DNA of 64,000 bases, from IMG/VR virus record IMGVR_UViG_3300020193_000003; one strand, written 5' to 3'. Origin of the DNA: a virus. Position 1 is the first letter of the stretch. Each line of letters opens with the position of its first letter. The position numbers were made by a program, and so were the translations under genes. A model generated the notes under the pieces. That model was not told the origin of the DNA, did no database searches, and saw only the letters and a list, made by a program, of their open reading frames with translations. Positions 1-41,900 of the stretch are shown one piece after another.

Positions 1-3000
1 GCCCTGAGACAAAAGAATTGGGGAAGGTACATATACCTACACGAACGCCCCTACCGCATCGACGCCTTCGAGGACGTCATGGACGAGCTGACGGACCAGG
101 AGTACTGGAGCCGACTCTCGGACATATGGGTGGACAGCGAGAACATCGGGGCGCAACCCGATCGTTGGAGGAACCTGCTACTGAGCGACCGCGGCTCGCG
201 CGAGTCCTTCATGACGGAGGACGAGCGCGCGGAATTCGCGGCGTTGCAGCCACGGTTCACCGTGTACCGCGGTTATTCGGAGAACGACCAGGAGGAGTTC
301 GGAATGTCGTGGAGCACCGACGCGGGAGTGGCCGAGTGGTTCGCCAGGAGATTCGCAAGGGAAGACGAGAAGATCTTCATGGAGGAAATGGAGGTCTCCA
401 AGGACGACGTCTTCGCATATCTCACGCGGCGGGGCGAGGAGGAAATAATCCTCGACATGCGCACCGCGGCTGGTGGGACGGCGAGTAGACGGGAGTTGCC
501 GCGGAAACCCAAGACGAGAATACCCACGAGGAGCAGAAAATTGACTCCCCCGGATGGCGAGGCGGGGATGTCAAGGACAACGGAGAGGGGCGATCTGGTC
601 AGGCTCGGCAGAAACTCGAATTATCCCAGCGGGTTGCAACCCGGATCGCTCGGCAGGGTCGCGAGAGTGGGCCGCGACGGAACCATCTCCGTGGAAATTG
701 AAGGCGAGCTGATAAAACTGACCCCCGGCGAGGACCATTTCCTGGTGATCCCGAGGCAGTTTGACGTCCTGTACGAGCTGACGGACAACGACGGCAACGT
801 GATTTACCTACCAGTCGAGGACGTGACGTACCCCCGGCTCACCAGCGCCAGGGAGGAAGCGGCAAAAGCTGGGTATAGAGAAACAGGAATCATCCGAGGA
901 AACATGCGAACATTTTTTGACGACGCCACGGGTACCTACAAGACGGAACGGACGGAGTTTGAGGTGATCGGCGCACAGAACATCCGGCCGGAAACGACGG
1001 CACCGGTTACGAGGCAATCCACAGACACTCCCGACGGCGAGGCCGCGATGTCCTCCCAAAAAATCCCCAAATTCAACGGCGGCCACAGCAGCAAGGGGAG
1101 GGGGACTCCGTCGGGTGACGGCAAGGACTTGGCGATGAGGGACGTGGCGGACAGCGCCATAGTCGAGTTGGCGAACGACGAGAGGAGCAGTTCGCGGACG
1201 ACGCTCGAGACGCTCGGGTCGTACCGGGCCGGGAGCATGGTCGTGATGCTGGCGAGAAACGGTGAGCTCCGGGGCATCCCGCTGAGGGACGAAACCATCC
1301 AGGCAATAACGAAAGCCCACGACGACGGTGCGATGTTCGTCGTCGGGGACATGCCGGGCGTGGATTCGCAGTTCGTGGAATTTTTGGACAAAATCGGGGC
1401 CGACTACACGATCTACCATGCGGGGAGTTCGCCGAGGTTCCGTCCGCAACCGCCCGACGCGCGCGGGGACGCGCCGTCCGAACTCCTCGCGCGCGTGACC
1501 GACGAGGACGCGCAGCTCAATCTCCTTTACTCGGTCCCCGGGGTCGCCGCCAGCGTCAGGATGAGGAGCACCGACGGTGCGCCCGTCGCCCCGGGCAAGA
1601 ACGCAATCATGAAGCCGTACCTCCTGGCTCCGCACATAGACGTGAACGGTTTGGACGCGTCGGACCCGGCAATCCAGTCCCTTTCGCCGGCACTGAAGGC
1701 CGCCGGGTTGGGAACCTACAAAGTCACCGGGCACTCGACCCCCAAGGTCCAGGGACCGGTGGTGAAGGAGTTCGCGGACAGGCTGATAGGTCCCAGTGCC
1801 GTCGCCGACGCCGTGCTCGGAACGTTCCCGACCGCGGACGAGATGCTGACGATATACGCAGTAAACGCACTCATCAGGGCGAGGGCGGAGTACCTTTCCG
1901 ACTCCGTCCTCAACGCGGACCAAGTAAACGAGGCGATCCTGTTCGGAAATGTCATGCTCGTGGGCCCAAAATTGCCCCAGGACCTGTGGGACATCCCGCA
2001 GGTCGGCACCTCCTTGTACCTCGACCCGTTCAGCTACTTCAAGAACTATTCCAACTTCCTCAAGGCCGTGATCGACGCGTTGCCGGAGCAGGTCAGATCC
2101 AGGCTGGGGGGCGGTCCCGACGACCGTGATGACGCCCAACGGTACTGGGGGGACACCTCGCTCTTCGAGGGCATCATAATCAGGGAAGACGACGACATCT
2201 CCAGAAGGTTCGCCCCCATGATCAGGAAGCAGGCGGGAATAGTGTTGGACCACGCCAGGCGACACGGCGAGCTGACGAGGAAGTGGGCGCAAACCGCCTA
2301 CGACTTGATGAAGGAGGCTGGCCTGACGGACGCAGAGGTGGCTTTCGTTGTCAACGAACACTGGACGAAAGCATCAACGTTCAAACTCGCCACGGTGCAA
2401 CCGGGGAACGTGCTGGGTCACGCGGCGAGGCTGGGCGTGAAGGCGTTCTCCTCGAGGTACTCGCCGATAAGCCGGGCCATCACCAAGCGCATCGAAGCCG
2501 TCCAATCCGGGGGCCTCCGCGAGGAAGAGGATTTCGGCCTGCACGAGTTCTTCCACCACTACCTGGGCCAGGGTTTCACCAGGCACGGGGAGTACGTGGC
2601 GTTCAGGGGTCCGGCCGATCTGATCGATTCCTACCACGGGCACATGCAGTGGGCCTGGAACGACACCGGTCAGCTTGGGATGTTCGTCTCCAGGATCATG
2701 ACGCAGGAGTTCGGCCGCGGCAAGACCGACGAGCCGGAGTTCGGGTATTCGCGCACACTCCATGACGCCATCGGCAGGGCCATCTACGACAGGCTGAAGG
2801 AGATGCTCTCCTCGGCCGAGGACAGGCGAAAAATAATGGATCAGGTGTTCCCGGAATTCCACGGGTCGCCCAGCGAGGACGAGGCGAAGATCAAGGCGCT
2901 GATCCGAAGGCAGTTCGCAGGGCGAGACCTTGAAAGGGTCCGCCAATTTGCGGATTTGATGCCCGTCCTCAGACTGCTCACGGTGCAGGACCTGCTGGTG

Positions 3001-3057
3001 CCGAAGATGTACTACCCCTACGGGGGAACGAGTAAAATAATCGGGGGGAGCAACTGA
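1..3057 (+). CDS. Large multidomain (polyvalent) phage protein, 5'-truncated by the window edge: RSE-type ADP-ribosyltransferase-like domain, DUF4314/SH3-like domain, SLOG-like domain, HExxH zincin-like domain
   Basis: Frame is open from base 1 (ALRQKNWGRY...), so the start is upstream of the window. Motifs: VYRG...SWST...EEE (262-444); GDLVRL...GRVARV...LTPGEDHF (571-760); FVVGDMPGVDSQF; HEFFH (2542). DGEAGM and DGEAAM separators have their ATG at 568 and 1048. Confidence 0.75.
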   Translation, partial: ALRQKNWGRYIYLHERPYRIDAFEDVMDELTDQEYWSRLSDIWVDSENIGAQPDRWRNLLLSDRGSRESFMTEDERAEFAALQPRFTVYRGYSENDQEEFGMSWSTDAGVAEWFARRFAREDEKIFMEEMEVSKDDVFAYLTRRGEEEIILDMRTAAGGTASRRELPRKPKTRIPTRSRKLTPPDGEAGMSRTTERGDLVRLGRNSNYPSGLQPGSLGRVARVGRDGTISVEIEGELIKLTPGEDHFLVIPRQFDVLYELTDNDGNVIYLPVEDVTYPRLTSAREEAAKAGYRETGIIRGNMRTFFDDATGTYKTERTEFEVIGAQNIRPETTAPVTRQSTDTPDGEAAMSSQKIPKFNGGHSSKGRGTPSGDGKDLAMRDVADSAIVELANDERSSSRTTLETLGSYRAGSMVVMLARNGELRGIPLRDETIQAITKAHDDGAMFVVGDMPGVDSQFVEFLDKIGADYTIYHAGSSPRFRPQPPDARGDAPSELLARVTDEDAQLNLLYSVPGVAASVRMRSTDGAPVAPGKNAIMKPYLLAPHIDVNGLDASDPAIQSLSPALKAAGLGTYKVTGHSTPKVQGPVVKEFADRLIGPSAVADAVLGTFPTADEMLTIYAVNALIRARAEYLSDSVLNADQVNEAILFGNVMLVGPKLPQDLWDIPQVGTSLYLDPFSYFKNYSNFLKAVIDALPEQVRSRLGGGPDDRDDAQRYWGDTSLFEGIIIREDDDISRRFAPMIRKQAGIVLDHARRHGELTRKWAQTAYDLMKEAGLTDAEVAFVVNEHWTKASTFKLATVQPGNVLGHAARLGVKAFSSRYSPISRAITKRIEAVQSGGLREEEDFGLHEFFHHYLGQGFTRHGEYVAFRGPADLIDSYHGHMQWAWNDTGQLGMFVSRIMTQEFGRGKTDEPEFGYSRTLHDAIGRAIYDRLKEMLSSAEDRRKIMDQVFPEFHGSPSEDEAKIKALIRRQFAGRDLERVRQFADLMPVLRLLTVQDLLVPKMYYPYGGTSKIIGGSN

Positions 3058-3260
3058 TGGAACCGAACAAACCGACCGACGCGACGCCGATCCTGAGGGT
3101 CGAGATTCCCGCCGCCAAACTCGACGCCATCGGCAGGGCGCTGGCCGGTCCTGATCCGCAGGACGACGACGGGTCGCACGCCGAGGCTCAGGCGGAGTGG
3201 GACATGATAGTTCGCGAGAGGAGCCCGAGGACGACAAGCTACGGCGGTGCCAGTAGCTAA
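3057..3260 (+). CDS. Small acidic hypothetical protein (67 aa), translationally coupled to the upstream giant ORF
   Basis: TGATG stop/start overlap at 3055-3059. Confidence 0.65.
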   Translation: MEPNKPTDATPILRVEIPAAKLDAIGRALAGPDPQDDDGSHAEAQAEWDMIVRERSPRTTSYGGASS

Positions 3261-3328
3261 GAAATATACGTCTATAATTGTTTGATGATTGTCAAATCCC
3301 GTCGCCGGGAATAGAGGATAAAGGGCAG

Positions 3329-6300
3329 ATGTCGCCAACCCCGTTCAGAATTCCGTTCAACGCGAAAATCGTCGCCAGGCACGGAACGACGTCCGTGTAC
3401 GCGCTCAGGGATGGGCGCCTCGCCTTCGTCGACCACACCAAGAACCGCACCTTCTTCGACGGGAGCAGGGACGTCGGGACGGGGACCTACGGGTCCGGTC
3501 ACAACTCGGCGTGGGCCGACTCGCGCATCGTCGCCGTCGCGTCCAAGGGCGGCTCCGCCTCGTTCGCACAGACCAAGGCACTCAAACCGAAACAATCCAG
3601 GGTGCCACAGGAGGCGCCGGACCAGCCGGGGGAGGAGATTCCCGACGAAGCTTTCTCGCGATTGATGCCGATGATCCCGAAGGAGTTCCTCGATTGGGCG
3701 GCGTCGTACGAGATCGGCGACCCGCTGCCCCCGATGATGCCGGGTTACGGCGGGAGGACGCTGTGCAGTAAATCCATAAACGACACCTCCTACTCGCAGG
3801 ACGACTTCGGGGTGGACCAGGTCGTCGAGCGCGTCCTCGCGGACATGGGTTTGCCAGACATAAACCCGGCCCTCGCCTTCGCCCCCGAGATCGAGACCAA
3901 GGGCCTCCCGCGGATGGAGCAGAAGGGCATCCTCGGCAGGGAGATCAGGGACATGGCGCGCAACATCGTCGACTCGATCCTCACGGCGAGGGGCCTGTGG
4001 AAGGACGAGCTGAACAAGATTCGCTGCGGGTCGGGGCCGAACGCCAACAGGTTCACCGACATCTTCGGGACCGGTTGCGACGTGCCGGGCGCCGACATGG
4101 CCGGCAACATCGTCGGCGCGATAAGGGCTGGGGTGGACGTTCCCGGTCCGGTGGACGAGGTGGCGGGGAAGATCGAGGGGGCGAGGGAGAGCGTCGCCGA
4201 CGCGGCCGACGGAATTGACGTCCCGGGCGGAAAATCGTCCCTCGGCGAAAGGCTCAGGATGGCGCTGACGAGGGTCCGGGGCGGGCACACGCCGCACTAC
4301 GTGGCCGACATGCCAGGCGACATTGACCCGGCAGCCGGCATGTCAGACGTGTTGAACAGGAGGTCCGACAAGAGGGGAGGGTTCCTGTTCGTCCGATCTC
4401 TCGTTTCGCGCAACAAACGGCGCGAGCGCGCCAAGAAGGCAGTGGGTCGTTTCGAATCCGCGGAGAAGATGGCCAGGGAGGCCTTCGCCACGCGCGAGTA
4501 CCGCGACTGGGAGCAGGACTTCACGCTGAGAAAAGGCAGGCTGCCGAACCAGGGCGAGAAACTCAACTGGTTGGCCGAGCACATCGGATGGAAAGGACAG
4601 TTCAGGGATGCGGCCGGCAAACTAGTGACGGACGAGCACGGCAACCCGGTGGGAAGCTTCGGGGGGTTGGCCGACACCGCGGTCGTGGACGGGGTCGTGA
4701 CCGACATGACCCATTTCGAAGCGATGGTCGAGCAGATAGTGCGCGACCCGAGATTCGTGGAGGGCGGTAATTTCGACAGGCTGAGCGAGGCCCAGAAGAG
4801 ACGGCGCAGGGAGGAGGTCGCAAGGAACATATACGAGTACGGGCTCCAGACCCTGTTTGCGATGAAGAACGCCGGCGGACCGGAGAAGATAGAGCAGATC
4901 CAACCCGACGGGAGCAGGATCCTGGTAGACAACCCGGAGCACAAGAAACGCTTCGCCGAGGTAATACCGACCCATTTCCGCGTAATTCACCCGACAGACC
5001 CCAGCAACTTCCGTGGACTCGCGGATGCGGCAGTGGTCACCGGGGTCAACAGTTTCGAACCGGGATTTGATGACGAGATCGACTTTGTCCCGTTGCTGGG
5101 GACAGATCGGCGGATGACTGCGGGACGACCGCTCACGGCGGGCGTGCAGCGCCATGGAAGGGTCGCCGGTTCTCTGCCGTTGTACGCGCATGAGAACCAG
5201 ACCCGTGGAGGCGAAATTCCGTTCGTGGCCTCCATAAGCCTGAATCCGGTGTGGTTCACCGACCGGCAAACACAGAAGGACAAGCTCAAGGCCTTCGGCG
5301 GTGACCACCTGGGGATGGACATAAGCAGGGAGGCGTTCTGGGCGCACACCGCCGACCACGAGCTGAACCACGTAGACGACTTCGCCCAGAGACTCGGGAA
5401 CAAGCTCGGATACTGGGGGGAACTCGGCGGCGGCCGGGAGGAGTGGATGCGGAGGCTGTCGCAGCAAACGTACACGCGCACGCCCACGGGTGGTTATTGG
5501 TCGAACGTGATAGACCTCCGCAAGGACGCGGCCAGCTACACGTTCCTCGGGCAGCAGATCGCGGAACTCGACGCCAAACTCGCCGCGGCCACGACGACCT
5601 ACGAGAGACAGAAGGCGATTTGGTTCTTCTACATGCAGAACATGAGGTTCAACGAGCGGACGATGTCCGACTTCGCAAGGTGGATGAACAGATCGGGCGC
5701 CGGTTTCACGCCCGGCAAGCGCCTTTCGAAGGCCGAGCAGGCCGCGATGCTCACAGAGATCTTTGAAAACCTGCGGGCGCGCGGCTACTCCGAGGAGCAC
5801 GGGGTGCCAACCTTCAGTTTCTGGGAAGACATGATGGACACGCCTCTGGGTTACTGGGACCCAGCGACGGGGAAGTTCGAGTTCCCGATGGACCCGCGCA
5901 CCGGGCGCCTGAACCCGTACCCGCTGAACGTGATGAACCTGCAGCCGAAGTGGACGGGAAGAAGAACCCCGGCGAATGTTCCCTTCTCGGAAAACGTGGC
6001 CACATTTGGGATTGAACTCGATCCGGCACGCTTCGGGCCTGGACGGGACCCGTACGGGCAGGCGAGGCTTGACAACTCCGTCTCCAACCTCCTGCACGGA
6101 TACATAGGGGGGACCTACGCCGGCGAGGACGACTATGAATTCGCGGCGGAGCTGAGGACGCAACTGAACAAACAGGGCGCGCTCGCCGACGTCAGGGAGT
6201 TCCTCGCCGACCCCGCCCGCAACATACACCAGCTCACCGAAGCCGACTTCATGACGCTCGTGGCCAGATACGTGGGGACGGACGAGGTGCACAGACTCTA

Positions 6301-9300
6301 CGGGGAACCGGTGCCGGGACCAAGAGCACTTCCCGATGGTGTTATCGGCCCGGGAGGCGGGGCACCCCCGCCACCTGGCGCGGGTGGGCCACCGGGCGGA
6401 GCACCGAGAGGACCGATGATCCCCCTCGGGCCAGGCTCGCCACCAAGGACGCCCCCTGATGGGGGAGGCGGCGCCACTCCGCCCCCAGCCTCCCCCGGAT
6501 CGCGTGGGACCGCCACCGGGCCGACGATTCCGACGGTGCCACGAGCCGACGACCCAGACATTCCCACTCCCGACGATACGACTCCGCCCCCAGCCTCCCC
6601 GCGGTTGCGCGGAACCGCCACCAGGCCGACGATTCCGATGCGTCCGTCGGACGAAGGTCCAGAAGCTCCCGGCGACGCCCCGGAGCCCGAGGCTCCATCG
6701 AGGGTCCGTGGCACGGGAGTCAGGAGACCGACCAGGCCGACGACCGACGACGATCTCGTAGAGCCGACGGTCAGACCCGAAACCGACGCGGATCGCGTTT
6801 CGCCGGAAAGACGCAGAGCCGACGCGGACAGGGAAAGAAGGGTGCGCGAGCTGTTCGGCGACGAAGAAGATCCAGCCGAAAGAGAGCGTTCCGGGACGAG
6901 AACAACCGACTCCGCGGAGGAGACTTCGCCCGATCGCCCGAGAACGACGGCATCTGCCGCGAGGGACGAACTCAACGCCGCTCGAAAGAGGGCGCGCGAC
7001 AGGCGTTTCGCGGAGCGGGAGGAAGCGGACAAAAGGGCGGAAGAAGCATCCCGCAGGATGGCGGAAGCCAGGTATTACGAGGGCGTCTACGGGGACGTCG
7101 AGCAAGCAGTGGAAGATGCAAAACGCAACATCCCGTCCGATAGTCGAATCAACCCTAGAGATCGCGAAAGGCGCGTTCGCACAATGGACGAACAAGTTGC
7201 GGCGAGGCGCAAGGCGCTTGATAAGGCATCGGCCGCGACCGATCCAAAAGAACGCAGGGGGCAGCAAATAGTCGCCGCCGCGCTAGAAGCGGAATTGATG
7301 TATAAAGCTGGGCAAATAGATTACAGAACCAACGAGCGCCGACAAGCGGACCTGTCGGTCCTGGCCGACCTAAACGGAACGCCACTCTACCGGGACGACC
7401 AAGGCATGTTCAAATTGGAAAGCAGCGTTCCGGAATGGCAGAGAACCGAGGGACCCGACTCGATCGACGATTCGGCCGAATCCGTCGCTTCTAGAACGGC
7501 TTTGGCCGAAAGAATGTTCGGAGAGAGCGAAGCCTCGGAACTCTTGGGCACTCGTTCTTCCGAGACCGACGGACCCACCGCCGATTCGCAAGCGGACAGG
7601 TTGAGGCTGAACCAAATTCGCGAGGAACGAGTCAACGCCACGGCGCGCGTAGCGGACGCGGAAACTCGCCACGACGAAGCCCTCAGGAGGGCGAGGCGCA
7701 CGGGATCCGATCCCGACAGGGGAGGGGACGGCGACCCGGCGGCGTGGGCGGATTACAGGGCGGCCTACGAAGAATTGAACGAGGCGGACGCCGAGAACGC
7801 CAGGCTGCTGCGCGAGTCCAGGGAGCTCGAGGATCGGATACCGAAGAGCGAGACACCGACGCCCGCCACGACCAGGGATCCCTCCAGGAGATCGTACGAG
7901 CGACCGGAAACTCCCGAAGGCATCATCGTGGAAGGCGAAACCCCGCAACGGCAGATACGAATGATCAACCAGACCACGGGGGAAATAATTTACGTGGATC
8001 CGAGCAACGCTCGCATCATGGATGAAGTCAGGGCAGAGGGCTTCGCTCCGGACGTGAGGCAACCCACCGCTCCCGCCAGGAGACAGGCCAGTGGGCGAGA
8101 AAAACCGCGAACGAAACCCGCACGTGAGCCCGATTGGGTGAGACGCGAGCGGGCCCGACGTGATCGGGCGGGATTGGCCGACGATATTCCCGGATACGAC
8201 GACGAGCCGGATGTGGGAATGGCGCCTCCGGTCAGGAGGGGATCGGATTCCGACGGGGTGAGGGAGTTCCTGGAGGAGGGCGACGGGGCCTTCATGACGC
8301 CCGAGCAGGCCCGCCTGCAAAGGGACGGAGCCGTCGAGCGCCGGGAGTCGGCCATCTCGCAGCGCGAGAGGTTGATAAACGAGAGGGACGGGGTTGAGAA
8401 CGGCGTCGTCGGACGCAACCTGACGGACGATCAGGCGCAGAGACGGGTTGAGGAGCTGAACCGCCAGATAGCCGACCTGGAGAGAAGAATAGACGACCAC
8501 GAGAGAACCGCGGAGTTGTTCTCGGAGCACGCACGGAAACTCGAGGAGGGAATCCCCATCAGGGGGAGACGAGGCGGCGACGCTGAAGCAGGGATGGCGC
8601 TTTACAGGCCGAAGAACGTCGTCACAACGACGAACGACCCACCGACTTCAATGAACCCGGGAACGATAACCTCGGACGGAGGATTCCAGGCTTACACGTT
8701 TGATTTTGCGACTTACGAATTCGACGGGCCCGACGGCATGGAACGAATAATCTTCGAGGACCCGAATCTCGTCAACATGGACGATCCCTCGATTCGGGTC
8801 ATCCCGAGAAATCCGTACGCGATCACCGGGACCGACGAGTTGAGCGAAGAGGGTCGGAGCTTGGCGCGCAGGTACCATCTCGCAAAGGCCGGTTTGATGG
8901 AGAGGAACCGTCTCGCTGGCGAGAAGGACCAGTACGATGTTGACGGCTACGTCGATTCCCTGCTCTACAGGGCCTCGATGGGTGACCCGGAAGCCGAAGC
9001 GCTAATTGCTGAGTTGTCGGATCTTGGCGAACAAATTCGGGAAGAGGCGAGGGCACGGAGAATAGCGAAAGACCTAGATGACAGCTTCGGCGAAATAGCC
9101 CAGTCGGAGATAGACGGGTCCAAGGGTGCCGCGACGCTGAAGGCTCTGACGCCCGATAAATTGGCCCTGGTCCACGAGACGAAATACGAACCAAGAGTTC
9201 TCCCCGACGGCACCCTGGAGATCCAGCCGTTGGCCGATTTTCCGACGAACCCGCCTTCCGAAGGTCTCGACACGATCGACGGGAAACCGACCTACCCGAA

Positions 9301-12300
9301 CGTAAACTACCCGCGTCACACCGTGCACTTTGGGGTCGGCGGGTTGGCCGGTGGCCACGTTCAAAGACAGAGCCCCAAGGACATTGACCCGAACCAACGG
9401 GTGTGGGTGGTGGTGACCAATTTCGGTGAGGCCATGGATGCGAATCCCGGTTCCGTCGAAACGATGCGTCTGGAAGACACGAGTCTCACCCCGAGAGCCG
9501 GGGAGGGACTGAGATTTCCCCCGGGGACCTTCCGGATCTTGGAACTCACGGGGGACAAGAAGGCGGATTTCGCCACGATGAACGGGGCGATTCTGGAGGT
9601 CGGCGGAACCCCACTCCCGGCAGACATGGACTATTCAAGGTACGGCGGCTCGGCCAGGTCCCGGAGGATATCTCAAATGGCCGCCGAGTTGGGTTTCCCC
9701 TCCGTTCTGGATGTCGACCATCCGAGCTCCCTGGGCCATCGGGGCTCAATGCGAAGGGGTAATTTCATCGATCGGCGCGAGGCTTTCGCAACGGCGTTGC
9801 CGATCGAAGAATCATCGCTCTCGATGCTCAGCGACAACAGTCTCGAGCGAATCAGCACCTCCACGCACACGTACGGCGGCGGGGTCGTTCGCTACGTGAA
9901 TGATTCGGACACGTACATCGAGCTTTTCCCGCCGGACCTACAGGAGCGAATCGACCAGGGGCTCATCAGCAAGCGCGACGCACGCAGAGAACTAACTGGC
10001 AGAGTTGAAGCCCGCAGGGCGGCACGGGCTCAATCCGCCGACGGGCCGAGCGCCGGCATGGCGAGGGGGACGAGCGAGGAAATCTTCATGCGACCCGACG
10101 GAACCTTCGACATCGGCCCGGACACGGGTGGGCGCTCCGCCCTGCGACCGAGTCGCATTGACGAAGAAGTTGTGAACCAGGCAGTGATCCAGGCTAGGCA
10201 GGAGGTGGTCAGCGAGGTTCTCGACAACCCGTTCGCAACCGACCAAGACTTCGGGCGCGCCTCGCAGGCGATCGACCTGATGGAGGATGCGATCGGCGCG
10301 GACGCTGCCGAGCGGCTCAGGAACAGACTCGCGAGGGCGCGGGCAAGGCGAGACAGAAACAGTCCCCAAACGATGCCGGAAATTAGACCGTACTTGATCA
10401 GGCCCCCGCAATACGGCGACGACTCGTTCGGGAACCGCAACCGCGTCGGCGACATGGCGCGCGCCATGTCGCGCCCCGACGACCCGAGGAATCCGCCTCG
10501 CACCGCCACGGCGAGATTGGCGCACATGGACACCGCCAACTCGTCCGTCGCAAGGGACATAACTTACGACCCGCAAAACGGAGACCTCACGGTCACCTAC
10601 AACGACGACAGGGTCGTCACGTTCACCGACGTGCCGTACGAGCGCGTGCGCAAGGCGGGTTTCGACGACCTGCCGGACGACCTGATCAGCGAACTGGAGA
10701 ACGAACAGAACCAGATGCGCAGCAGGCCAATCGGCAGGATGTCCGACGGCAACCGGGCCCGCAGGAACGTCTCGGGCCCGAGACGATTGCTCTCCGAGGG
10801 GAACTTCCGGTCCAACGAACGACGGCAACCACCCGGCGCTGAGCAGTTCGACGATGGGCCGTCGGCCGGCATGGGCCGAACGTACGAAACCCTGGTCGGC
10901 ACGCACGCCAACGTCGTCTCCAGAAAACGAGACGAGTTGGCGAAGGCGCAACAAACGCTTGACGGGATAGGCACCCGCAGGGACAAGGGGTTGGTGACCG
11001 AGGACGAGGCCAAGGCGGTCGCCTCTGCGTTCGCGGACCTGTTCTCCGGGGACATGAGGGTGCAGAGCAATTTTGAGGGGAGACTGAGGACGGAGTTGCT
11101 CAGCGACGGTCGCACCATGGTCAGGTTGGATGCGCAAGTGAACTGGGAGGAGATGGTGCAGGTCCAGGACCTGACGAGCATCCCCATAACCATGCAAATA
11201 AAGTCCGCCGACGGAAAAACGATTTACGGGTACGCCTCAAGGAGGCTGGAGATAGGCGAGGACGGAATCACCGTCCATCACGGTTCCCTCACCATCTCGC
11301 CGGAGTACCGCGGCAAGGGGATAGCCAGCGAGTTCAACGCAAGGAACGAGAACCTCTACAAAGCCCTCGGGGTCAGGAGCATAACGACCAGCGGATCCTC
11401 CTCCTCGGTTACGAGCACAAACAACCCGTTCGAGGACCAGGTGATCGGAACCGGCGCGACCCACTGGGCCCGCAACGGGTTCACCTGGAGGGACGATGAC
11501 GCGAAACAAAAATTCATCGGAATCATAGACTCGGCATTGTCTAGGAAGCCGGGAATCTTCTCGGACGAGGAGAGGCAGAGGATATCCTCCCTGTACAAGA
11601 GGGGCCGATCCGGGGACTTTCAGACGTCGGCGACCGCGGAAGAGCTGGTTGATTTCGAGGCCGCCGACAGATTGTTCGCCGAGGAAGGCGCGATCATCGG
11701 GTACAGGAGGGACCTGGCGCCCGCCGAGATTGCTGCTCCGAAACCGTCGAGACTCACCAGGATCGCCGACAGGCTCGGCCGGCGCTCCCGAAACCGGCGC
11801 GACGAAACGGACGGTCCGTCGTTCGAGCCGCCTCCCTGGGACCCGGATGCCGAGCTGGAGGAGGCGCTGGATGACAGGCGGGCCCGCCGAATCGCGGAGT
11901 CGCTGGCGGCGGCCGAGCTCCCGGATTTCGTCAGGGATTGGGACCCGGAAGCAGGGATGGCGGAGACGAGGAGGGCGAGATCGGCAGCGAAGAGACGAAA
12001 CGCGGCCATGGCGAGGAACGTTGGCCCGGCACTCAAAGGGGACACGGATGTCAAAGAGAAAAGCGTGGACCCGGCGCCGCCGCCGTTCTCGCGAAGGGAC
12101 TCGCAGAAATTGACCCAGGTGACTGCGGATTCCGACGCGCTCAATGCGTCGATCGTCCAGCAGAGAAAGGCCCTCGTCGACAAGTACGCACCGGGCAGGC
12201 ACGGAGAGCCAGTTGAGTCCTATGCGGACGAGCTCATGGACAGCATGGGCGTCGCGCGCGAGACGGGCCTGAAGGGCAAGCCCATGACGTTCGGCGAGCA

Positions 12301-13873: not shown

Positions 13874-13885
13874 GGGGGTGGCACC

Positions 13886-17298: not shown

Positions 17299-17863
17299 TG
17301 ACACGGGAGTGAAGGCGGATCCGCTTGGCGGCCTGCTGCCGCAGGAGGTCGTCACCGGCGACATAATGCGCGGCTACGGCCCGCGGCGCGGGAACCTCGA
17401 GCGGTTGCTGCGCTACTGGAGACCGATAATGAAAAAGCCTGGCGGCTTCCGGAGATGCAGGGTGATCCTGGCGAACCACCCCGAGCTCTACCCGCTGAAC
17501 AACATCTGCGCCTGGTTGCACCACGAGACGACGGGCCTCTGGCCCAACGAGGGTTGCCACCACCCGGGGATGAAGAACTGCAGGAGGAAGTTGCGCGGAG
17601 TGGTGAACGGGTCGCTGTGGAGCGACTCGGATTTTGACGACCGCATCAGGAAGCTGACGAGGAGGGTGACCAAGAAGAAGGACCTTCGGTCCAGCGGTGG
17701 AATCGACGCGGCGCCACCGTACGAGCCGTTCGTCCCCGTCATCACCGACGACGACTGGGACCACGCCTGGAAGGTCATGGACGACTTCGTGAAGATGGAG
17801 ACGAAGTTCGTCGCATTCGTGTGCGACGACAACAACTGGGAGATGTTCGACTCGGATGTATGA
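17288..17863 (+). CDS. Head-region protein with a Cys/His motif (LxRYW...PGGFxRC...CAxLHxxxTGxWP)
   Basis: Overlaps both neighbours in the operon; the motif resembles, from memory, one in actinophage head-module proteins. Confidence 0.65.
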   Translation: MKTDDTGVKADPLGGLLPQEVVTGDIMRGYGPRRGNLERLLRYWRPIMKKPGGFRRCRVILANHPELYPLNNICAWLHHETTGLWPNEGCHHPGMKNCRRKLRGVVNGSLWSDSDFDDRIRKLTRRVTKKKDLRSSGGIDAAPPYEPFVPVITDDDWDHAWKVMDDFVKMETKFVAFVCDDNNWEMFDSDV

Positions 17864-25488: not shown

Positions 25489-25925
25489 GAGATCCCGACG
25501 GAAACCCGAGAGACCCCAACGCAATACGCATGACGGAGCCCGAGCAGTTGGAGATGATGTCCGACTATGCGTCGGTGGCCGAGGACGCGAAGTATCCACC
25601 GTTCACGCTGCCGGGCAACACGAAGGACGAAGATTTCCTTTTGATCCTCTCCAGGGAGTACGACCATTTCCTTTACGGCGAAAAGCCCTACGACTCATTT
25701 CGGGCCGTGCAGGAGGCATACTCGGATGAGCTGGTCGAATCACGCGCGTGGAGGTCGCTTGCGTACTCCCCGCAGGAAGCGGCCATGGAGGTCATCACGC
25801 GATCCCTGAGGGACGCCAGTGTCCCCGCCGAAGAAATCGAGTATCGTGCCGAGAGGCTGTACATCTCGCATGCCAAGACGCAGTACATGGGCGATCTTGA
25901 ATTTTTGCCGTGGGAACAGCTGTGA
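25485..25925 (+). CDS. Small acidic hypothetical protein (146 aa, MRDPDGNPRD...)
   Basis: ATGA overlap at 25485-25488; C-terminal part of track ORF 25008..25925. Confidence 0.7.
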   Translation: MRDPDGNPRDPNAIRMTEPEQLEMMSDYASVAEDAKYPPFTLPGNTKDEDFLLILSREYDHFLYGEKPYDSFRAVQEAYSDELVESRAWRSLAYSPQEAAMEVITRSLRDASVPAEEIEYRAERLYISHAKTQYMGDLEFLPWEQL

Positions 25926-26857
25926 GAGAGAAGGCCACCAGGGAGGACGCCCTCAAGATCGCCCGCTACATGGGTTGCCGAGGGGCTCATCAGGGCGAGA
26001 ACGGGGATTGGTTGCCGTGCGCCGACGCCGAGACGCTCAGTCGTCTGTCCTCGGCAGCGGAGGACGACGCGTGGTTGCTGCGCTTTCAAAAGGACGTGCA
26101 TTCGGGGAACGGACCCGTCGGGGGCGTGGCGGCGAACGTGGACATGAACGGCAGGAGGAAGAGGGGCGTGAGACCGTTCGACGTGCCACCCCCGGAGTTC
26201 GGGGATGGCAAGTCGGCCAACAACTACACGAAGCCGAAACTGAGGGGGAGCATCAAGAATCGCATCATGGCGGGCTCGCAGGGGGGCAAGCCAGGGCAGT
26301 GGTCGGCGCGCAAGGCACAGCTCGTCGCGCAGGAGTACAAGAAGCGCGGCGGAGGGTACAGGGGAAAGAGAACCAAGAAGCAACGCTCACTCTCCAAGTG
26401 GACCAAGGAGAAGTGGACGACATCGGACGGCAAGCCGGCGATACGCCAGGGCGGGACGAGGCGCTACCTGCCAGCCAAGGCCTGGTCAAAGCTGAGCCCG
26501 TCCCAGAGGGCCGCCACCAACAAGAAGAAGCGCGAGGGCAACAAGAGGGGACGACAGTTCGTTGCCAACACGGAAGCCGCGGCGAGGGCAAGAAAGACCT
26601 CCACCAAGTCCGGTTACCCAATCATCGTGAAAAAGACGCTCGTGATGCAGAGATTCACGGAGACGGAGGGTCGCGGACCAGGGCCGCGTCGCAAGAAGAG
26701 GGGCAAGAGATGGGAGAAGCTCACCGAAAGGGGTCCCTCCCAGATCGTTTCGACCCCGAACTTCGGCCTCACATCCAAGTCGCAGTCCATTGATCTGCAA
26801 AAGATCGGCACGGAAGTGAGACAAGTGTTGACGACCTCAAGATTTTTGGCGGACTAA
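25922..26857 (+). CDS. Basic protein with an N-terminal GCxG...WxPC motif and a DUF5872-like domain
   Basis: GTGA overlap start; YTKPKLR...GGKPGQWSARKAQLVAQEYKKRGGGY...RYLPAKAW, recalled as DUF5872. Confidence 0.7.
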   Translation: MREKATREDALKIARYMGCRGAHQGENGDWLPCADAETLSRLSSAAEDDAWLLRFQKDVHSGNGPVGGVAANVDMNGRRKRGVRPFDVPPPEFGDGKSANNYTKPKLRGSIKNRIMAGSQGGKPGQWSARKAQLVAQEYKKRGGGYRGKRTKKQRSLSKWTKEKWTTSDGKPAIRQGGTRRYLPAKAWSKLSPSQRAATNKKKREGNKRGRQFVANTEAAARARKTSTKSGYPIIVKKTLVMQRFTETEGRGPGPRRKKRGKRWEKLTERGPSQIVSTPNFGLTSKSQSIDLQKIGTEVRQVLTTSRFLAD

Positions 26858-26931: not shown

Positions 26932-29900
26932 ATGGACGACTCAACAGAACAGGGCGATTGTTGTCCTATCTCGGGGGGGGAAATAGAGCAGAAGGACATC
27001 GCCTTCGGTCCCAGGCGGGTCCGTCCGGATAGTTTTGACGCATACGTTGACAAGGAATCGGCCCGCGCAAGGGCGCGGATGCTTGGGTGCATCGGAATAC
27101 GACAATACAGCTCGACGGCGGGCGGGACCGTCTGGATGCCGTGCAGCAACGAGTCCGACTACAGGAAGGTGACCGGCCAGGACAATTTGTCGCGGAGACA
27201 GCGCAGGAGGATGCTAAAAGCCGCCTTCGCCGACGACCTGGAGACCAAGGCCCTCGGCTCAACCATCGGGACAGTCAGCGGTCAGGTGAACATGAACCCG
27301 TTCACCGCCATAGACGCAGACCTGGACGGTCTCGTACTCGAGGGCCTGCCGCAAATCAACATGGGTCGCGGGGTGCCCGACCCGACGCCGGGAAGGGCGG
27401 AAATTCCATCGGCGCCGACGTCACCCCTTAGGCGGATGGACTGGTCTCCGTTCGATATGGCGCGGCCGACGCAGGAAGTTCCAACGCCGCCCGTTCGCAA
27501 GCGCGATCAGAGGATGAATCGTCCGAGTGCGAAGCTGCGAATGGAGCAGTTCAGGGACAACGTGGAGGCGGCGCTGAAGGACGACCTGTTCGCCAATTCC
27601 TGGCAGAATGCCGTCACGGATTTTATCAACTCGGACATATTGGGGGACGACGACTCCGACCAATATCTCAACCAAAACCTGTACTCCATCGTGGAGGACG
27701 TCGCCTCGAGGGTTGAGTCGGTGGTCGACGAGCAACCAGAGTTTTCTGTGCCGAGGGGTCGCACCCGAAGGGACGCCGCGGACGCAACTTCGGCGCGCCT
27801 GACGGCAAAGGTTCTCGGAACGGTGTCCGAATTGATGAACAATCCGCCGGACGCCATGACCGGGAGGGACGACGTGGTCAGAAGACTGACATCGTCGTTG
27901 TTGGAATCTGGAGCGAGGAGGGTTGCGGACACGGGCGGAAAGCCAGGCGTGTGGGCCTTCCTGATACAGGCGATACTCGGGGGCGCAATCGGAGTCCAGG
28001 GAGGCTGGGAGTTGCTGGCGAGAGTATTCGGAATAGAGAATTCAACTGGCTGGATCCCTCACCCAACCGGGCGCAGTCTCGAAATCCTGTCACCCAGCCT
28101 TGCCAGACAAAGGTCCAACGAGGCAAGGTCGAGGGCCCTCGAGAGGGTCACGAGGACCATGGACGCCCTGCGCAACGCCGGTTTCGCAATAGCCGACGCC
28201 GGGGACATCCCGTCCGTCGCCGACGACATCGCAGAGGTCTTGGACGGAGACAGGTCAACCGACCTTCCGGGTGACCTGTTGCCCAAGGACACCGCCAAGT
28301 CCAGCTCGCTTGACGAAGTGATCAGGAGGATGAGGGAAGCCACGGGCATCAAGGACAGCGTGGCGACCAGGAGGCGCCGAGATACGCGGACATATGTGGA
28401 GGAGGATTTGATCACCAGGAATCGCATGGATCTCGTCGGCATTCCCACTGGGATCCTCGACGTCTTTGATTCCTCGTCGGTCCCCGCACCGACGCCGTCC
28501 GACGGTTCGGCTGCGAGATTGATCACGTCCGGTGGGGTCGACGGTCTGAATCCGATGAACGCCAAACTGCTGTACGACGCCATGAGCGACCAAAACTTCC
28601 TGCGAACCTTCGTCGCCCCGGCCGACTCGCCGTACGCTGCGCAACTGGCGACCCTTATCGAGCAAGGAAGGCTGCCGAAGGTGGTGGCGGCGATACTCGA
28701 GATGTCACCGGAATCAGTGGAGGATTTCCTCGCAGTCAACCCGAGACCACTGATCATGTCGGCAAGATCAGCCAGGAAGAAGTTGAGACCCGCCGGCTCG
28801 TGGATGGCCCGCATAGACCACGATCCGTTTGAGGTCGCGGCCCACCTCATGCGGGCGAAGGACTACCACATTTCGGCGATAGCGAACGGCTCGGACTCGC
28901 CCGTCCTCCTCGACGCCGTGGACGAGCTGGTCGGCAACAACGCCTCCGAGACCTCCGCCATCTTCTCGTCGATAGTGGCCAACAACAAGCAGAGATTGGC
29001 GGACGCATACGACGGGTCGTTGCAACTGGCGCGGTCGGGGAACGGGCTCCTGATGGCGGCGAGAAACCTGATATCAAATGCGACAGAGAACGATTCCACA
29101 TGGAGTGCCTCACGCAACGCAATATCCGACGCGTCCCGGGCGATGGTCTCCGCAGAGGACGTCTCTGCGGGCATGGCGAACACTGCCTCAAGGTACGGAA
29201 GGAACTACCCGAGGCACAGACGCAAGAGCGGCGACTGGTCGCCAATAGCCAACAAGATACGAGACTCGATCAGGCGCTACAAGTCCCGGTATGGCGCCCC
29301 AGCGGCGAACTCGGCGGACTTGGCGAGGTTCGTGGACTTCTCCTACCCCGAACTTCTTGACGAGGCGGCCGAGCTGATTGACCTGATGAAGCAAAAAATA
29401 GAATTCGGATCCCTCGCCATGGCCGATTACGCAAGCGACGGGTGGAGGAACAGGGATGTCGCCGAGCTGGCCCTTGACGAGTTTGACCCGACGAACCTTG
29501 AGTCCATTTTTGACCCGGGTAGCAGGATGGGCCTGCTGAAGGCGATCGGCGTCAACCTGGCGGCGGCGGCCAAGATGGCGCCGTCGCGATCCGAGCGAGA
29601 CGGAGTGATGGACATCCTCGACGAGGTGAACTCCTGGAGCTTCACCGTCCTCCCGCTGTACACGGAGCCGAGGTCCGTGACATCGCGTCGCAGAGGAATT
29701 TTCCCAAGCGTCTCCAGCGACGCCGAGGCTGGCATGACGGTCAACAGGGGGGTCCCGGAGGACATCAGGCAAACGCTCATGTCAAGATCCGCACCGCTCG
29801 GATCCGAAACTGAGGGTACGCCGAAGATCCGCATGAGAAGAAAGTTGATCGAGAGGGCCAACGAGTTGCTCGCGGCAAAGCAGTCAGACGACCTCGTGGA

Positions 29901-38900: not shown

Positions 38901-41900
38901 CGACATCTACCCAGTGGTTGGCACGAACTTCAGCGAGGCCGTCAAGGAGATGCGCAGGACGCTGGGAGGCTTGGCCCCCGAGGCTGTGTCGGCTGTTTAC
39001 CGCGGCAGGGACCAGCTCATTCTCGCCGCGGAATCGGCCAACCGCGCGCTGACGCCTGACGCGGACAGAAAGAAGGCATTGGAGACGATGAACCTGTACG
39101 TCATCCCGGTGATAAAAGGCTTGATGGCGGTGCACAGGACAAACATCGAGATCGGGTTCCGGCAGGTCGCATCGTTTGCCGAGGGTCTGAAGCGCCTGAC
39201 CCAGGCGACGCCCATGAGCGGGGTACAACGAGAGCTCATGACCATCGCATCACTGCTTGCCGAGTTGCGCCTAAGGGGATCGATAAACGACGTCACTTAC
39301 TCCAAGCTGATGATGGAGATCACCCGCGCCGGAGCCACGACCATGTTCGGCGACCTGGAGTTCGGCAACACCGTGATGGAAGCCATCGCAAACGGGAGCA
39401 CCGATGACGTAATGACGTTCATGATGCTGATAGACGACGCCGTCTCGGACAACGTGGACGAGGACAGGCGACGCGAGTTCATCGACAAGTACAAGGGGTA
39501 CATGACCGCCGCACAAAGCGCGTTCGGCGACGCCTTCGAGCAGCACATCAGGAGCGGCTTCTACGGAAGCGTGAAGACGATCGGCGAGGCGGTGAGGGAG
39601 ATGGAGCCATTCATCCTCGCCACCGAGCGCGCGCGCAGGAGGAGGATCCTGCTCCAGAGATACAAGCGAGAGGTGATTGACCCCGTAAAGGACTCCCTGC
39701 TCACCGATGAGGAGAAGTTCAAGGACCTGAGGACCTTCAACGAGTGGCTCGACGCCAGCGGGTTCCCCGACCTCACGTACGACAAGGGCAACTCGGGTGG
39801 CGACGGCGAGGCGGCGATGTCGGCCACCACGAGGACCGCGATGGCCAGATTCACCGATGACGCCGCGTCCGCGGTTGTCGAGGGCTACGAGGATTCGGCC
39901 AAGTCGGGTTCGTCAAGACTCAACCTCGGGCACATGCTGTCAGGGGCCTGGAGGGCGCTGATGACCGACACGAAGTCCGGTTCGTACGCGTCGAAACTCA
40001 GGAGACTCAACATAAGACCGGAGAGGATGGCCGCGGCGCTTGCGAGCATCACCACCCCGAAGGACGGCCCGTCGCCGAAACCCACGGATTATTCCAAGGC
40101 TGCCAAGAACGCCATGATCGGGGCCATACGGGCCGCCTCCAGGAGGGGCGACGAGTACGTCGATCTCGGCGACCTGCTGCAGGCGATACTCGACCCGTCA
40201 CTCAGGGGACGGGACGACGACGGCGTCGAAGAAGCCCTGATGCTCGCCGACATTTCTCCGAACGTGATAAGGATGGCTATAGCGCAGGCGAGAATCTCGG
40301 GCGGCAGGGAGCCGATGTCGGACGCCGAGGCCGGCATGTCCGCCAGTCGCATGGCGATGAACTCCGCCGACAAACGCGACGACCTGAAGAGAAACAAGAT
40401 GCTCGCCGACGGCATGTGGTTCAACTCCGACCGACAGGTCCCTGTCGCCACGGGGACTGCGACCGACGGGCAGCTCGTCGACGAGGTGGAAAGACTCATG
40501 AACGTCTACGCCATCGGCGCCGCGAGGTCCGAACTGGAACCCGTGGACTTCCGCAGCGGGGAATCACCCTTCTCCAACGCGGCGATCAGGCCGACCAACT
40601 CGCGCCTCATCCACGGCGACAACGGCCAGGAGCCGACCGACCTTGTCGGAGCGATCAGGCACGCCATGGACAGGGCCGACGCCCTGTTGACGGACGAGAT
40701 GGAGCAACGGAGGTTCCACGAACTCAAGTCAAAGATGCGCCTCTACTTTGACAACGACGAGCACATGCCCGACGAAAAGGGGGACGCCGAGGCCGGCATG
40801 GCGAGAAATTTCAACGAGATGATTGAGCCGATAACGGAGAACTTCGGGCGCTCGGAGAAGATCGGGCAGAGGCAGTATTTCGAGGGCATCTACGGCGACG
40901 CGGACCTGAGCGAGGCAGAGTTGCGAAAGGCGGCCGACGTCGCATCGCTCGGGTCGCCCTTCGACATATCGCGCAACCTCGACGGCAACGAGGACGACGT
41001 CAACTGGAGCACGGGCCAGTGGTCGTTCAACAGGGACCAGACCTACGTTGAGGCGGCGGACTCCGTGATGATAAGGATGCGAGACGGCGACTTGACCACG
41101 GCAGAGATTGCGATGATCTCGCGCAAGAGCGGCCCTTTCAGGGACGCCATGGCCCTCGTCGGCGGACTGAAGGACGAAGGCGAGGATTTCATGACCACGG
41201 CGGCCCGGGAGACGGCGGAGGAGGTCGGAGTTTCCCTCGAGAGGGCGCTACAGGCGCAGTACATCGGAACGATAGAGTCGCCCGACTGGGATCCCCGGTT
41301 CGTCAACGGAGCGAAAGTTGGCGCCGGGATGTTCGTCCTGCCGTGGGACACGCCCCTCGTGGCTGCGTCCGACGCCGCAGGTGCGCGCTGGGTTCCCCTG
41401 TCGGAGATAGCCGCGGGCCAGCACAGGCTCGCCTTCGGGCACGCCGAATGGATACGAAGGGCCGTCGCCGCGATGCAGATAGACCCGTCGTCGGACCCCT
41501 ACGGGGACCTTCGTCTCTCGATAGCGATCAGGCTCGGGTTGCTCTCCAAGGCCGCGAGGGTGAGGAACCAGAAGATGATCGCCATGGTCAACCTCGTCCG
41601 CAGGGCGACGGGCAAGAAGTTGTTCCCCGAGCAGGGCGACATGCCGCACCCGATGATGCCGTGGGGCAACAGGGTTGCGAGCTCCTCGTGGAGATTCGGG
41701 CCCGATGCCGAGGCGGGAATGTCCGCCTCACCCATCGACGACTCACTGCCAAGGGAGCTCGGCCTTCTGTCCGTCCAGAGCTCGATGCCCCCGCGTCTCC
41801 TCGAGAGCGGTGCGGACACCGCGGGCTTCTACAAGGTCGGGCACTCCAGGGGGGGCGACGACTTGTTCTCGGCGTGGGGCGACAAGACGAGGGTGGAGAG

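Follow-up and report, generated by a model that had tools for sequence, protein, structure and literature searches.

A conserved separator peptide at module boundaries in giant proteins of an uncultured lake phage: candidate polyproteins of the head block

The window (the whole 64,000-nucleotide stretch of DNA analysed here, IMG/VR record IMGVR_UViG_3300020193_000003) comes from an uncultured phage for which lake metagenomes are the sole known origin. It carries, 5′ of the capsid gene, a series of giant open reading frames (ORFs A, B, C, D, E and G) along which one short peptide recurs. What does this peptide do, and are the proteins that it punctuates kept whole or divided?

1..3057, plus strand: ORF A; 5′ end open, at least 1018 aa in the window, three modules
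3278..13873, plus strand: ORF B; six modules, 3531 aa counted from TTG or 3514 aa counted from the ATG at 3329
14183..16933, plus strand: ORF C; 916 aa, in the order leader element, separator, 790-aa module with HEMGH
17856..19949, plus strand: ORF D; 697 aa, conserved over its full length in every lineage
19939..25488, plus strand: ORF E; 1849 aa
26932..42663, plus strand: ORF G; 5243 aa, directly 5′ of the capsid gene, about 11 modules
42959..44362, plus strand: HK97-fold major capsid protein; N-terminal delta-like region, no separator

The modules of ORFs A, B, C, E and G are mutually unrelated and range from about 150 to 1400 residues; module 1 of ORF A matches phrog_4776, a family of stand-alone phage proteins. 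In relatives the portal gene comes first, followed by an S78 prohead protease joined in one frame with the first giant ORF, then by further giant ORFs and the capsid gene, the giant-ORF stretch covering about 35–60 kb. No published description of such a separator system was found in the literature.

A sequence-only reading of the window had listed about 21 copies of a D-x-E-A-G-M separator, and all 21 ATG positions do carry the peptides given; the list was incomplete, as it missed a conserved copy at 14558 in ORF C. The joint is a short disordered linker that ends in [D/G]-x-[E/D/S]-A-[G/A]-M and is followed by a small residue (S/A/T/G/V at 20 of 21 sites).

553..570, plus strand: DGEAGM (ATG 568), ORF A; the homologous module boundary is the C-terminus of an ORF in G005 and a separator in G004
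1033..1050, plus strand: DGEAAM (ATG 1048), ORF A; DGEAGM at the same place in G002
4325..4342, plus strand: DPAAGM (ATG 4340), ORF B; kept in G002 (DPMAGM) and G001 (DPAAGM)
8204..8221, plus strand: EPDVGM (ATG 8219), ORF B; probably not a separator, not conserved in the close relatives G002 and G001
8579..8596, plus strand: DAEAGM (ATG 8594), ORF B; conserved, with a 20-aa insertion in the G002 linker immediately upstream
10043..10060, plus strand: GPSAGM (ATG 10058), ORF B; from alignment with relatives
10856..10873, plus strand: GPSAGM (ATG 10871), ORF B; from alignment with relatives
11942..11959, plus strand: DPEAGM (ATG 11957), ORF B; present in G001, lost in G002
14543..14560, plus strand: GPVAAM (DGPVAAM; ATG 14558), ORF C; kept as P-[V/L/M]-A-A-M in G002 and G001
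19110..19127, plus strand: EDEAGM (ATG 19125), ORF D; separator role uncertain
21109..21126, plus strand: DAEAAM (ATG 21124), ORF E; same column SAGM in G002, MAAM in G001
29158..29175, plus strand: DVSAGM (ATG 29173), ORF G; from alignment with relatives
29719..29736, plus strand: DAEAGM (ATG 29734), ORF G; from alignment with relatives
30229..30246, plus strand: DSEAGM (ATG 30244), ORF G; from alignment with relatives
30961..30978, plus strand: DAEAGM (ATG 30976), ORF G; from alignment with relatives
32947..32964, plus strand: DIEAGM (ATG 32962), ORF G; DITASM here in L007
34735..34752, plus strand: DAEAGM (ATG 34750), ORF G; doubtful, in a conserved helical stretch
36814..36831, plus strand: DAEAGM (ATG 36829), ORF G; from alignment with relatives
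39802..39819, plus strand: DGEAAM (ATG 39817), ORF G; in predicted coil
40321..40338, plus strand: DAEAGM (ATG 40336), ORF G; from alignment and AF2 model
40783..40800, plus strand: DAEAGM (ATG 40798), ORF G; from alignment and AF2 model
41704..41721, plus strand: DAEAGM (ATG 41719), ORF G; N-terminal boundary of the zeta module

Enrichment over composition was borne out by a shuffle control: the strict pattern D-x-E-A-[G/A]-M (D.EA[GA]M) occurs 15 times in 13,254 giant-ORF residues, whereas 2,000 shuffles of those residues averaged 0.043 and never gave more than 1, and EAGM alone was observed 13 times against 0.23 expected. All 15 strict matches lie on the plus strand and in frame with ORF A, B, E or G, and the pattern is absent from the five other reading frames. 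Selection acts on the peptide, as had been claimed, because codon choice in the motif follows the general codon usage of the window and Shine–Dalgarno (SD)-like pairing 5′ of the motif ATGs (−5.4 kcal/mol) does not exceed in strength what random synonymous versions of these peptides give (−6.1 ± 0.5 kcal/mol). The motif search of the window also agreed with the earlier claim that the capsid gene and the region right of 47 kb are free of it. Separators had further been placed in flexible linkers, and for most sites this stands: they are located at conserved joints in predicted coil and indel hot spots, and in the AF2 model 4/4 separators lie in coil between structured elements. The sites at 8219, 19125 and 34750 are doubtful. 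The EDEAGM at 19125 is kept in three xAGM-lineage genomes in a variable loop of the conserved 697-aa protein, and alignment of ORF D revealed no separator at the matching position in G004 and G005; the motif at 34750 is present only in the window and the L004/G001 phage, the residues being D-M-x-x-R-M in L003/G002, L006 and L007.

Relatives that share the capsid protein keep the separator at the same joints, each lineage in a dialect of its own (xAGM, PTASM, GPxGxM, I-T/S-G-x-M, STRS, TLRSSG). Colinear homologues at 46–64% identity retain the motif at the same joints, with only A-[G/S/A]-M and the small residue conserved and the upstream linkers variable with indels. At the N-terminus of the zeta module every lineage has its own version (AEAGM, VNAGM, PTASM, PVGKM, ISG[K/R]M, IAGKM or ITGAM), 5–12 residues before a conserved P-[I/L]-D-D-S-L..R-L-G, or about 30 residues before it in L021 and L074; in L066 STRS lies near the start of the zeta match, in an uncertain register. 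Repeat copies in other lineages number 12–13 for STRS, 11 for TLRSSG and 8–10 for GPxGxM; STRS and TLRSSG contain no Met, and Ile replaces Met in some lineages. One of two scored dialects was found at 20/63 related loci that have ORFs of 1000 aa or longer. G004, a complete genome, has 31 motif matches, of which 20 fall in the protease-to-capsid block, one fifth of the genome, and the 12 long-ORF matches of G001 are all in giant ORFs, six others being in frames of 115–329 codons.

The joints are also where modules come and go, a point that the earlier reading had put forward for checking in relatives. Between the window and G002 no homology is detected upstream of 1048 whilst downstream identity is 85%, the module after 11957 is missing from G002, and the match of neighbouring ORF B modules is 40%, 89%, 89%, 91% and 0%. 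It is at the separators themselves that modules are exchanged or that identity changes abruptly; BLAST matches linking the window to G004 or G005 are confined to single modules, no homology among distant genomes runs past a separator in ORFs of several modules, and the C-termini of ORFs in one genome align just 5′ of separators in another. These comparisons (with G002, G004 and G005) support the view that the modules are exchangeable cassettes with breakpoints at the motif, and that the motif is a real, selected separator at module boundaries.

Of the domain calls of the earlier reading, NUDIX and zeta were confirmed, KTSC and Clp-N were weak, and ART, DUF4314, SLOG, GNAT and zincin were not detected by Pfam. 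The window has four HExxH motifs where its composition predicts about 0.4 (own estimate).

39820..40320, plus strand: Clp-N-like module, 167 aa, which takes up the interval from one separator to the next; ClpC2 chains match residues 8–127 weakly (E = 0.003–0.006), AF2 pLDDT 70–86
41068..41460, plus strand: NUDIX domain (Pfam PF00293, E = 2.5e-9) in the module bounded by 40798 and 41719; its homologue in G004 and G005 has ITGxM-type separators on either side
41959..42477, plus strand: zeta-toxin-like P-loop kinase domain (Pfam PF06414, E = 3.1e-19), last module of ORF G
2542..2556, plus strand: HExxH (HEFFH), last module of ORF A; a motif-only call, motif and flanks also in G002
5357..5371, plus strand: HExxH (HELNH), B-type, ORF B; H-E-x-x-H-x3-F invariant in 5/5 genomes compared
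12797..12811, plus strand: HExxH (HEYAH), last module of ORF B
15533..15547, plus strand: HExxH (HEMGH-VLD), C-type, ORF C; kept in G002 and in G004, there inside a 2485-aa ORF

Two HExxH types are thus conserved across dialect lineages; the HExxH modules had no family match in Pfam and PDB searches, and the AF2 model of an HExxH module is of low confidence.

The separator is most likely a protease cutting mark. On the strength of sequence comparison, we consider it probable that ORFs A, B, C, E and G encode polyproteins of the head block and that a phage protease would cleave them at the bond beside the conserved Met, at G↓M or M↓S/A/G, and release the chain as separate proteins. The cut originally suggested after Glu (E↓AGM) is unlikely: relatives put D, N, S, T or M in place of Glu and keep A-G/S-M, which places any cut next to Met. 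Since the genes lie in the head-morphogenesis block, the products would probably enter the procapsid and reach the host along with the DNA. Both candidate proteases are present in the family. The conserved HExxH (zincin-like) modules of ORFs A, B and C are slightly favoured as the enzyme, with the S78 prohead protease a close second; as HExxH is missing from ORFs E and G and from the S78-led ORF of G002, a zincin would need to act in trans. The capsid protein lacks the motif but has candidate maturation sites at PR↓SIGQQF (aa 124/125) and GANM↓A (aa 147/148), the former of an HK97-like [K/R]↓[S/T]-I-G type that is kept in all dialect lineages, a point that counts against the processing reading.

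A version that differs solely in the enzyme, and which we regard as possible but unlikely, has the HK97-type S78 protease cutting the separators in the procapsid, after Met (M↓S/A/G), with one pocket for long unbranched side chains that also reads R↓S and K↓S dialects and the capsid site. The gene evidence, which comes from relatives' genomes, is suggestive: S78 heads a separator-punctuated giant ORF in G002, G003 and L123, and in G004 a shorter ORF of 831 aa that has two separators, so that its own release must take place at a separator. The His and Ser catalytic motifs of S78 are intact, nearly all separator-bearing ORFs fall between protease and capsid gene, STRS and TLRSSG can be read as R↓S, and the small post-Met residue resembles HK97 K103↓S104 and the P1′ Ser preference of SPN3US gp245 (PMC10052503). 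However, the S78 domain is 73–91% identical across lineages with completely different separators, and the capsid site is almost invariant too, so one and the same conserved enzyme would need to recognise highly divergent sites. The small-residue rule fails in G004 and G005, Ile stands for Met in some lineages, and in G004 the 1671-aa ORF in the tape-measure position, which has 3 separator matches against 0.18 expected (P ~0.0005), encodes a protein beyond the reach of an enzyme confined to the procapsid.

It is less likely still that the motif is uncut, a docking or hinge element along full-length multi-domain proteins that binds the capsid interior, the portal or a chaperone, or aids threading through the tail. 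Cleavage is something that we infer from sequence, the virion RNA polymerase of phage N4 is delivered uncut, as is ArdC/TraC1 (PMC5512222), and the three doubtful copies count as conserved sequence and not as linkers, which also speaks against polyproteins. A binding motif would not be expected, however, to coincide exactly with ORF ends, cassette breakpoints and module boundaries, nor to change wholesale between lineages whilst always remaining a 4–6-residue peptide in a disordered linker. Internal translation starts (in-frame ribosome-binding site and ATG) or a gene-fusion relic, with modules made without proteolysis, are very improbable and largely refuted: the Met is invariant in the window's lineage, GAG-GCN-GGN yields GAGG five bases 5′ of the ATG and the residue that follows is a small one, like those at many genuine N-termini, but the anti-SD pairing is no better than chance recoding gives, several of the phage's own gene starts (among them 25008 beside ORF G and the capsid gene at 42959) have little or no SD pairing, PTASM has no purine-rich stretch, STRS and TLRSSG have no Met, and frames unbroken for up to 15.7 kb over roughly 20 joints in this window alone go unexplained if read-through is not needed.

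Polyproteins cut at separators would have several partial precedents. In phage T4 the internal proteins and Alt carry a capsid-targeting sequence that is removed by gp21. HK97 gp4 (S78) matures gp5 at K103↓S104; the S78 of the relatives has the same catalytic His and Ser positions, and the capsid site is similar, but the separator of the window's lineage is not K↓S and HK97 has no cargo polyproteins. T4 effectors are procapsid-loaded and trimmed by the head protease before delivery (reviewed in PMC9026906), as those of the window may be, although each has a separate gene and its own leader whereas the window would have many effectors per chain. In phiKZ-like giant phages (SPN3US gp245, phiKZ gp175) many head-gene-linked proteins have a recurring short consensus, the prohead protease processes itself and products are ejected into the host (PMC10052503, PMC5694885); that enzyme is reportedly T4 gp21-like and cuts after Glu (A/S/G-x-E) (PMC5694885, in part), mostly removing N-terminal propeptides, at 14 sites in nine head proteins of SPN3US (PMC10052503). 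In the window's family S78 is the candidate for the head protease, the residue that is conserved is not Glu, and the sites set whole modules apart from one another in chains of up to 11–12 units. The polyvalent proteins of phages and conjugative elements (Iyer, Burroughs, Anand, de Souza and Aravind 2017; PMC5512222) are likewise very large, string together unrelated enzymatic and binding domains (counterparts in the window being the NUDIX, zeta-like kinase, Clp-N-like and HExxH modules), and are predicted to travel with the DNA and to be processed by embedded peptidases (zincin-like MPTase, assemblin-like). That account describes neither a cleavage motif nor linkers (‘linker’ occurs 0 times in the text), whereas the window system has an explicit, enriched and positionally conserved separator with lineage dialects, and far larger arrays (up to 5243 aa, about 35–60 kb per genome); the polyvalent hub Pfam families MPTase-PolyVal and LPD were not detected. 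Eukaryotic RNA virus polyproteins (picornavirus 3C sites) are also a single product cut at a short repeated site into functional units, an operational analogy drawn in PMC5512222 too; they share no domain or protease family with this dsDNA phage, in which dialects shift between close lineages.

The earlier interpretation is thus partly supported, in that a conserved separator stands at the boundaries of exchangeable modules, whilst the cut at E↓AGM is unlikely and the generality of Met-led products does not hold. Met is invariant in the window's lineage, but lineage dialects without Met mean that ‘Met-led effectors’ are not a general feature; the window motif is read as one dialect of a code used family-wide.

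The giant open reading frames (ORFs) of the window, which has a G+C content of 62%, all lie on the same strand as the capsid gene, and ORFs of 916-5243 aa adjoin this HK97-type gene.

ORF A, 5' end open, at least 1018 aa within the window, + strand
ORF B, 3531 aa, + strand
ORF C, 916 aa, + strand
ORF D, 697 aa, + strand
ORF E, 1849 aa, + strand
ORF G, 5243 aa, + strand
HK97-fold capsid gene, 42959-44362, + strand

The stretch comes from lake-water metagenomes, no RNA data set being listed among the records that carry it, and the phage is uncultured. Its capsid protein shares ~45% identity with its counterparts in Brevibacterium phage Cantare and the Gordonia Bendigovirus phages; outside the capsid protein, no homology to Cantare or the Gordonia phages (DalanDe) was found, and these cultured capsid relatives, DalanDe and Cantare, were rejected as carriers of the system, their large head-region proteins being without a recurrent motif. 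Together with the ClpC2-like module described below, the capsid relatives point to freshwater Actinobacteria as the likely hosts. A related capsid protein is encoded by 285 IMG/VR stretches, and in most of the 80 loci kept, ORFs of >1000 aa are found directly upstream of the capsid gene. DUF3721 is found both near the N-terminus of ORF G (27049-27153) and, together with DUF5872, in the 315-aa ORF F2 (25910-26857), which resembles an ORF G-family head that was split off or duplicated, because in G004 and G005, two distant complete genomes, both pieces belong to one giant ORF. The otherwise unrelated ORFs C, E and G share an N-proximal element (14204-14431, 20527-20754 and 27247-27396, respectively) with the sequence ..P-I-G..N-A-D-S-D-P..Y-E-G-I-P..I-N..G-R-G-[I/V]-x-D-P-T-P-G, before which an HK97-like T-K|A-L-G stands in ORF G. 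It is also carried by the S78-led, A-like, C-like, E-like and G-like ORFs of the close relative G002 and by a 771-aa ORF of G004, and may be a leader for capsid targeting or anchoring.

The giant ORFs contain a recurrent D-x-E-A-[G/A]-M-type peptide, termed here the separator, each site of which is named by the ATG position of its Met. The sequence-only reading had listed 21 sites, and the peptides that it reported are present at every one of them. The motif is also enriched: in 13,254 aa, D.EA[GA]M occurs 15 times (mean of residue shuffles, 0.043) and EAGM alone 13 times (0.23 expected). All 15 copies of D.EA[GA]M in the window are in the coding frame, with none in the other five frames, and a small residue directly follows the Met at 20 of the 21 listed sites. 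The codons of the motif follow the general usage of the window, and anti-Shine-Dalgarno pairing upstream of its ATGs is no stronger than when the same peptides are recoded at random with synonymous codons (-5.4 vs -6.1 +/- 0.5); selection therefore acts on the peptide rather than on the DNA, as had been proposed. A DNA-level repeat or recombination signal is ruled out by the same general codon usage and by the unrelated flanks. Comparison with G002 and a second close relative, G001, showed nearly all of the listed sites to be conserved, leaving three questionable: site 8219 is not conserved, site 34750 lies inside a conserved helix and is absent from L003/G002 and from the related loci L006 and L007, and site 19125 is in a loop of a protein that is conserved end to end. 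A conserved site at 14558 had been missed.

Separators sit exactly at module ends and are interchangeable with stop codons. The modules of the window are mutually unrelated, and its BLAST matches to G004 and G005 are confined to a single module on both sides. The phrog_4776 module opens ORF A in the window; in G005 it closes the last giant ORF, at the C-terminus, and in G004 it is internal, with a separator after it and the zeta module beyond that. When ORF B was compared with G002 its modules were found to be, in order, 58%, 41% (partial), 89%, 89% and 91% identical, with the last one absent, whilst the homology of ORF A switches at 1048, from none upstream to 85% identity downstream; relatives accordingly gain and lose modules at the motif, as the cassette proposal had anticipated. 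The suggestion that each segment holds one domain agrees with the Pfam matches for NUDIX and zeta toxin, each of which fills one module. Likewise, the placing of the motif in linkers rather than folded domains is consistent with the AF2 model of ORF G residues 4280-5243, where all four separators are in coil between structured elements; the model is poor overall (mean pLDDT 44), and only its secondary-structure pattern and one confident module were used. That confident unit (pLDDT 70-86) is a 167-aa module between two separators, and it resembles ClpC2.

The sequence of the separator changes as a set from lineage to lineage, each lineage having its own version, or dialect, at the same joints. 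ORF G residues 2033-5243 have colinear counterparts in four relatives (identity 46-64%), which keep A-[G/S/A]-M and a small residue at the window's sites; the residues upstream are variable, with indels. Among related loci the dialect is P-T-A-S-M throughout in L007, G-P-x-G-x-M in L032, S-T-R-S in L066 (12-13 copies) and T-L-R-S-S-G in L075 (11 copies). In G004 and G005 it is [I/V/L]-[T/S]-G-x-M, and 20 of the 31 genome-wide matches in G004 are inside the protease-to-capsid block. The joint at the N-terminus of the zeta-like module is homologous across lineages, and there a lineage-specific dialect stands ahead of a conserved P-[I/L]-D-D-S-L..R-L-G, the gap from dialect to P-[I/L]-D-D-S-L being 5-12 residues in most lineages and about 30 in L021 and L074.

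One reading is left that suits all of these features, a protease site adjacent to the Met, since the separator is a short, disordered, selected peptide that stands at module ends and changes set-wise between lineages. Judged from sequence, the separators are probably such sites, and a protease would cut the chain next to the Met. Of the two cuts first suggested, E|AGM is unlikely because the Glu is not conserved, varying in relatives. The alternative that an internal ribosome-binding site or start lies at each joint is ruled out by the Met-less dialects, by the lack of selection for ribosome binding and by frames that stay open across roughly 20 joints in the window.

For the enzyme that would read the separators, there is a slight lean towards the predicted zincin-like HExxH modules. 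The window has four HExxH motifs, in modules at 4955-5977 and 15170-16102 and in the last modules of ORFs A and B, and two types are conserved across lineages with H-E-x-x-H-x3-F invariant; the modules also diverge fast enough to follow the dialect changes. The conserved hydrophobic residue after the small one would suit a zincin S1' pocket. Iyer et al. (2017; PMC5512222) predicted that polyvalent proteins are processed by embedded peptidases of this class. Neither Pfam, PDB nor AF2 confirms these modules as peptidases: the Pfam search was empty, as was the PDB profile search with the C-type module, which has only 5 homologues in a large protein database, and the B-type module was modelled at a pLDDT of 43.

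The other candidate reader is the S78 prohead protease. No prohead protease gene lies within the 64-kb window; the S78 enzyme is present in the relatives G002, G003, G004, G005, G006, G007, G010 and L123. The order in G002 is portal (Phage_portal + Mu_F), a 4384-aa ORF that starts with Peptidase_S78 (E = 5e-12), more giant ORFs and finally the capsid gene, which the protease precedes by about 60 kb. This layout recurs in the complete genomes of G004 (169 kb) and G005 (160 kb), where it spans about 35 kb. L123 is a relative still closer than G002 (S78 93% identical), and eight or nine EAGM sites occur in its S78-led ORF. The catalytic residues of the protease are intact, and the enzyme forms one polypeptide with a separator-punctuated chain; HK97 K|S is echoed in the small residue that follows the Met and in the R-S dialects. 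The substrate site of HK97-type S78 enzymes is a basic P1 followed by Ser (K|S), which the STRS and TLRSSG dialects of other lineages would fit; it is not found in the window lineage, where Met precedes the small residue. Against this candidate, the S78 domain is 73-91% identical across differing dialects, and its few dialect-linked changes (e.g. CLPGC vs VATGA/VVSGA) are inseparable from shared descent. The capsid protein keeps [K/R]|[S/T]-I-G whatever the dialect, which also counts against S78, and no capsid maturation site covarying with dialect was found, both candidate sites being constant across relatives. In a system of the T4, phiKZ or SPN3US type one short motif would also mark the maturation site of the major capsid protein; D.EA[GA]M is absent from the capsid protein of the window. 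Finally, the ORF in the tape-measure position of G004 has three separator matches vs 0.18 expected, and a tape-measure protein never enters the procapsid; these matches suggest that the reader is not confined to the procapsid.

The G004 ORF in question (L104:9701-14716) is downstream of the tail sheath, and its matches are in its own dialect, e.g. GGGITGAMSGG, the expected number being obtained by shuffling. In the capsid protein, aa 123-149 (43325-43405) hold the two candidate maturation sites, kept in all relatives of any dialect: PR|SIGQQF, with the Cantare counterpart EAK|SLGEAF, like HK97 K|SLG, and G-R-N-G-A-N-M|A. In relatives the S78 domain is directly preceded by a conserved [Y/F]-K-[S/A]-x-x-G-Q (L091:13602-14381, L083-L090, L113-L116), a further HK97-like K|S candidate site that may mark a self-trimmed N-terminal peptide. 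S78 relatives (L122-L200) are found in >500 freshwater and marine metagenome contigs, including TARA, and in many of these loci the ORFs that follow, of 1600-3000 aa, show no obvious recurrent 4-mer; separators may therefore occur in only a part of the family, or their motifs may be longer and looser.

The system groups with the polyvalent proteins and with the head cargo that proteases process in T4 and phiKZ-like phages. With polyvalent proteins it shares a large multidomain phage protein with unrelated effector-type domains (NUDIX, zeta toxin, ClpC2-like) (Iyer et al. 2017); the polyvalent hub domains MPTase-PolyVal and LPD gave no Pfam matches at E <= 1, and Atlas feature matches to LPD and zinc-protease clusters scored < 0.9. 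It differs from both groups in its explicit inter-module separator, its lineage dialects and its much larger scale, and no description of such an inter-module motif was found in the published literature searched. Delivery of the giant proteins into the recipient cell with the DNA is predicted from the place of their genes in the head block.

The chances are evenly balanced that this is a widespread family of uncultured ~160-kb aquatic phages that give over between a fifth and more than a third of the genome to head-module polyproteins, punctuated by a drifting proteolytic code that co-evolves with its reader protease, offering plug-in points for effector cassettes and yielding ~50 products per genome, as a counterpart of RNA-virus polyproteins. 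The motif is a simple handle with which to find and segment such proteins in metagenomes. If the separators are cut, they would give a residue-level map of how polyvalent proteins are divided into products, until now only postulated, and five unreadable giant ORFs would become about 25 discrete candidate effectors, including Clp-N decoy-like, NUDIX, zeta-like kinase and zinc-protease-like modules. Cutting would also explain module gain and loss in giant arrays, and would make the lineage dialects a natural experiment on the co-evolution of proteases and their sites.
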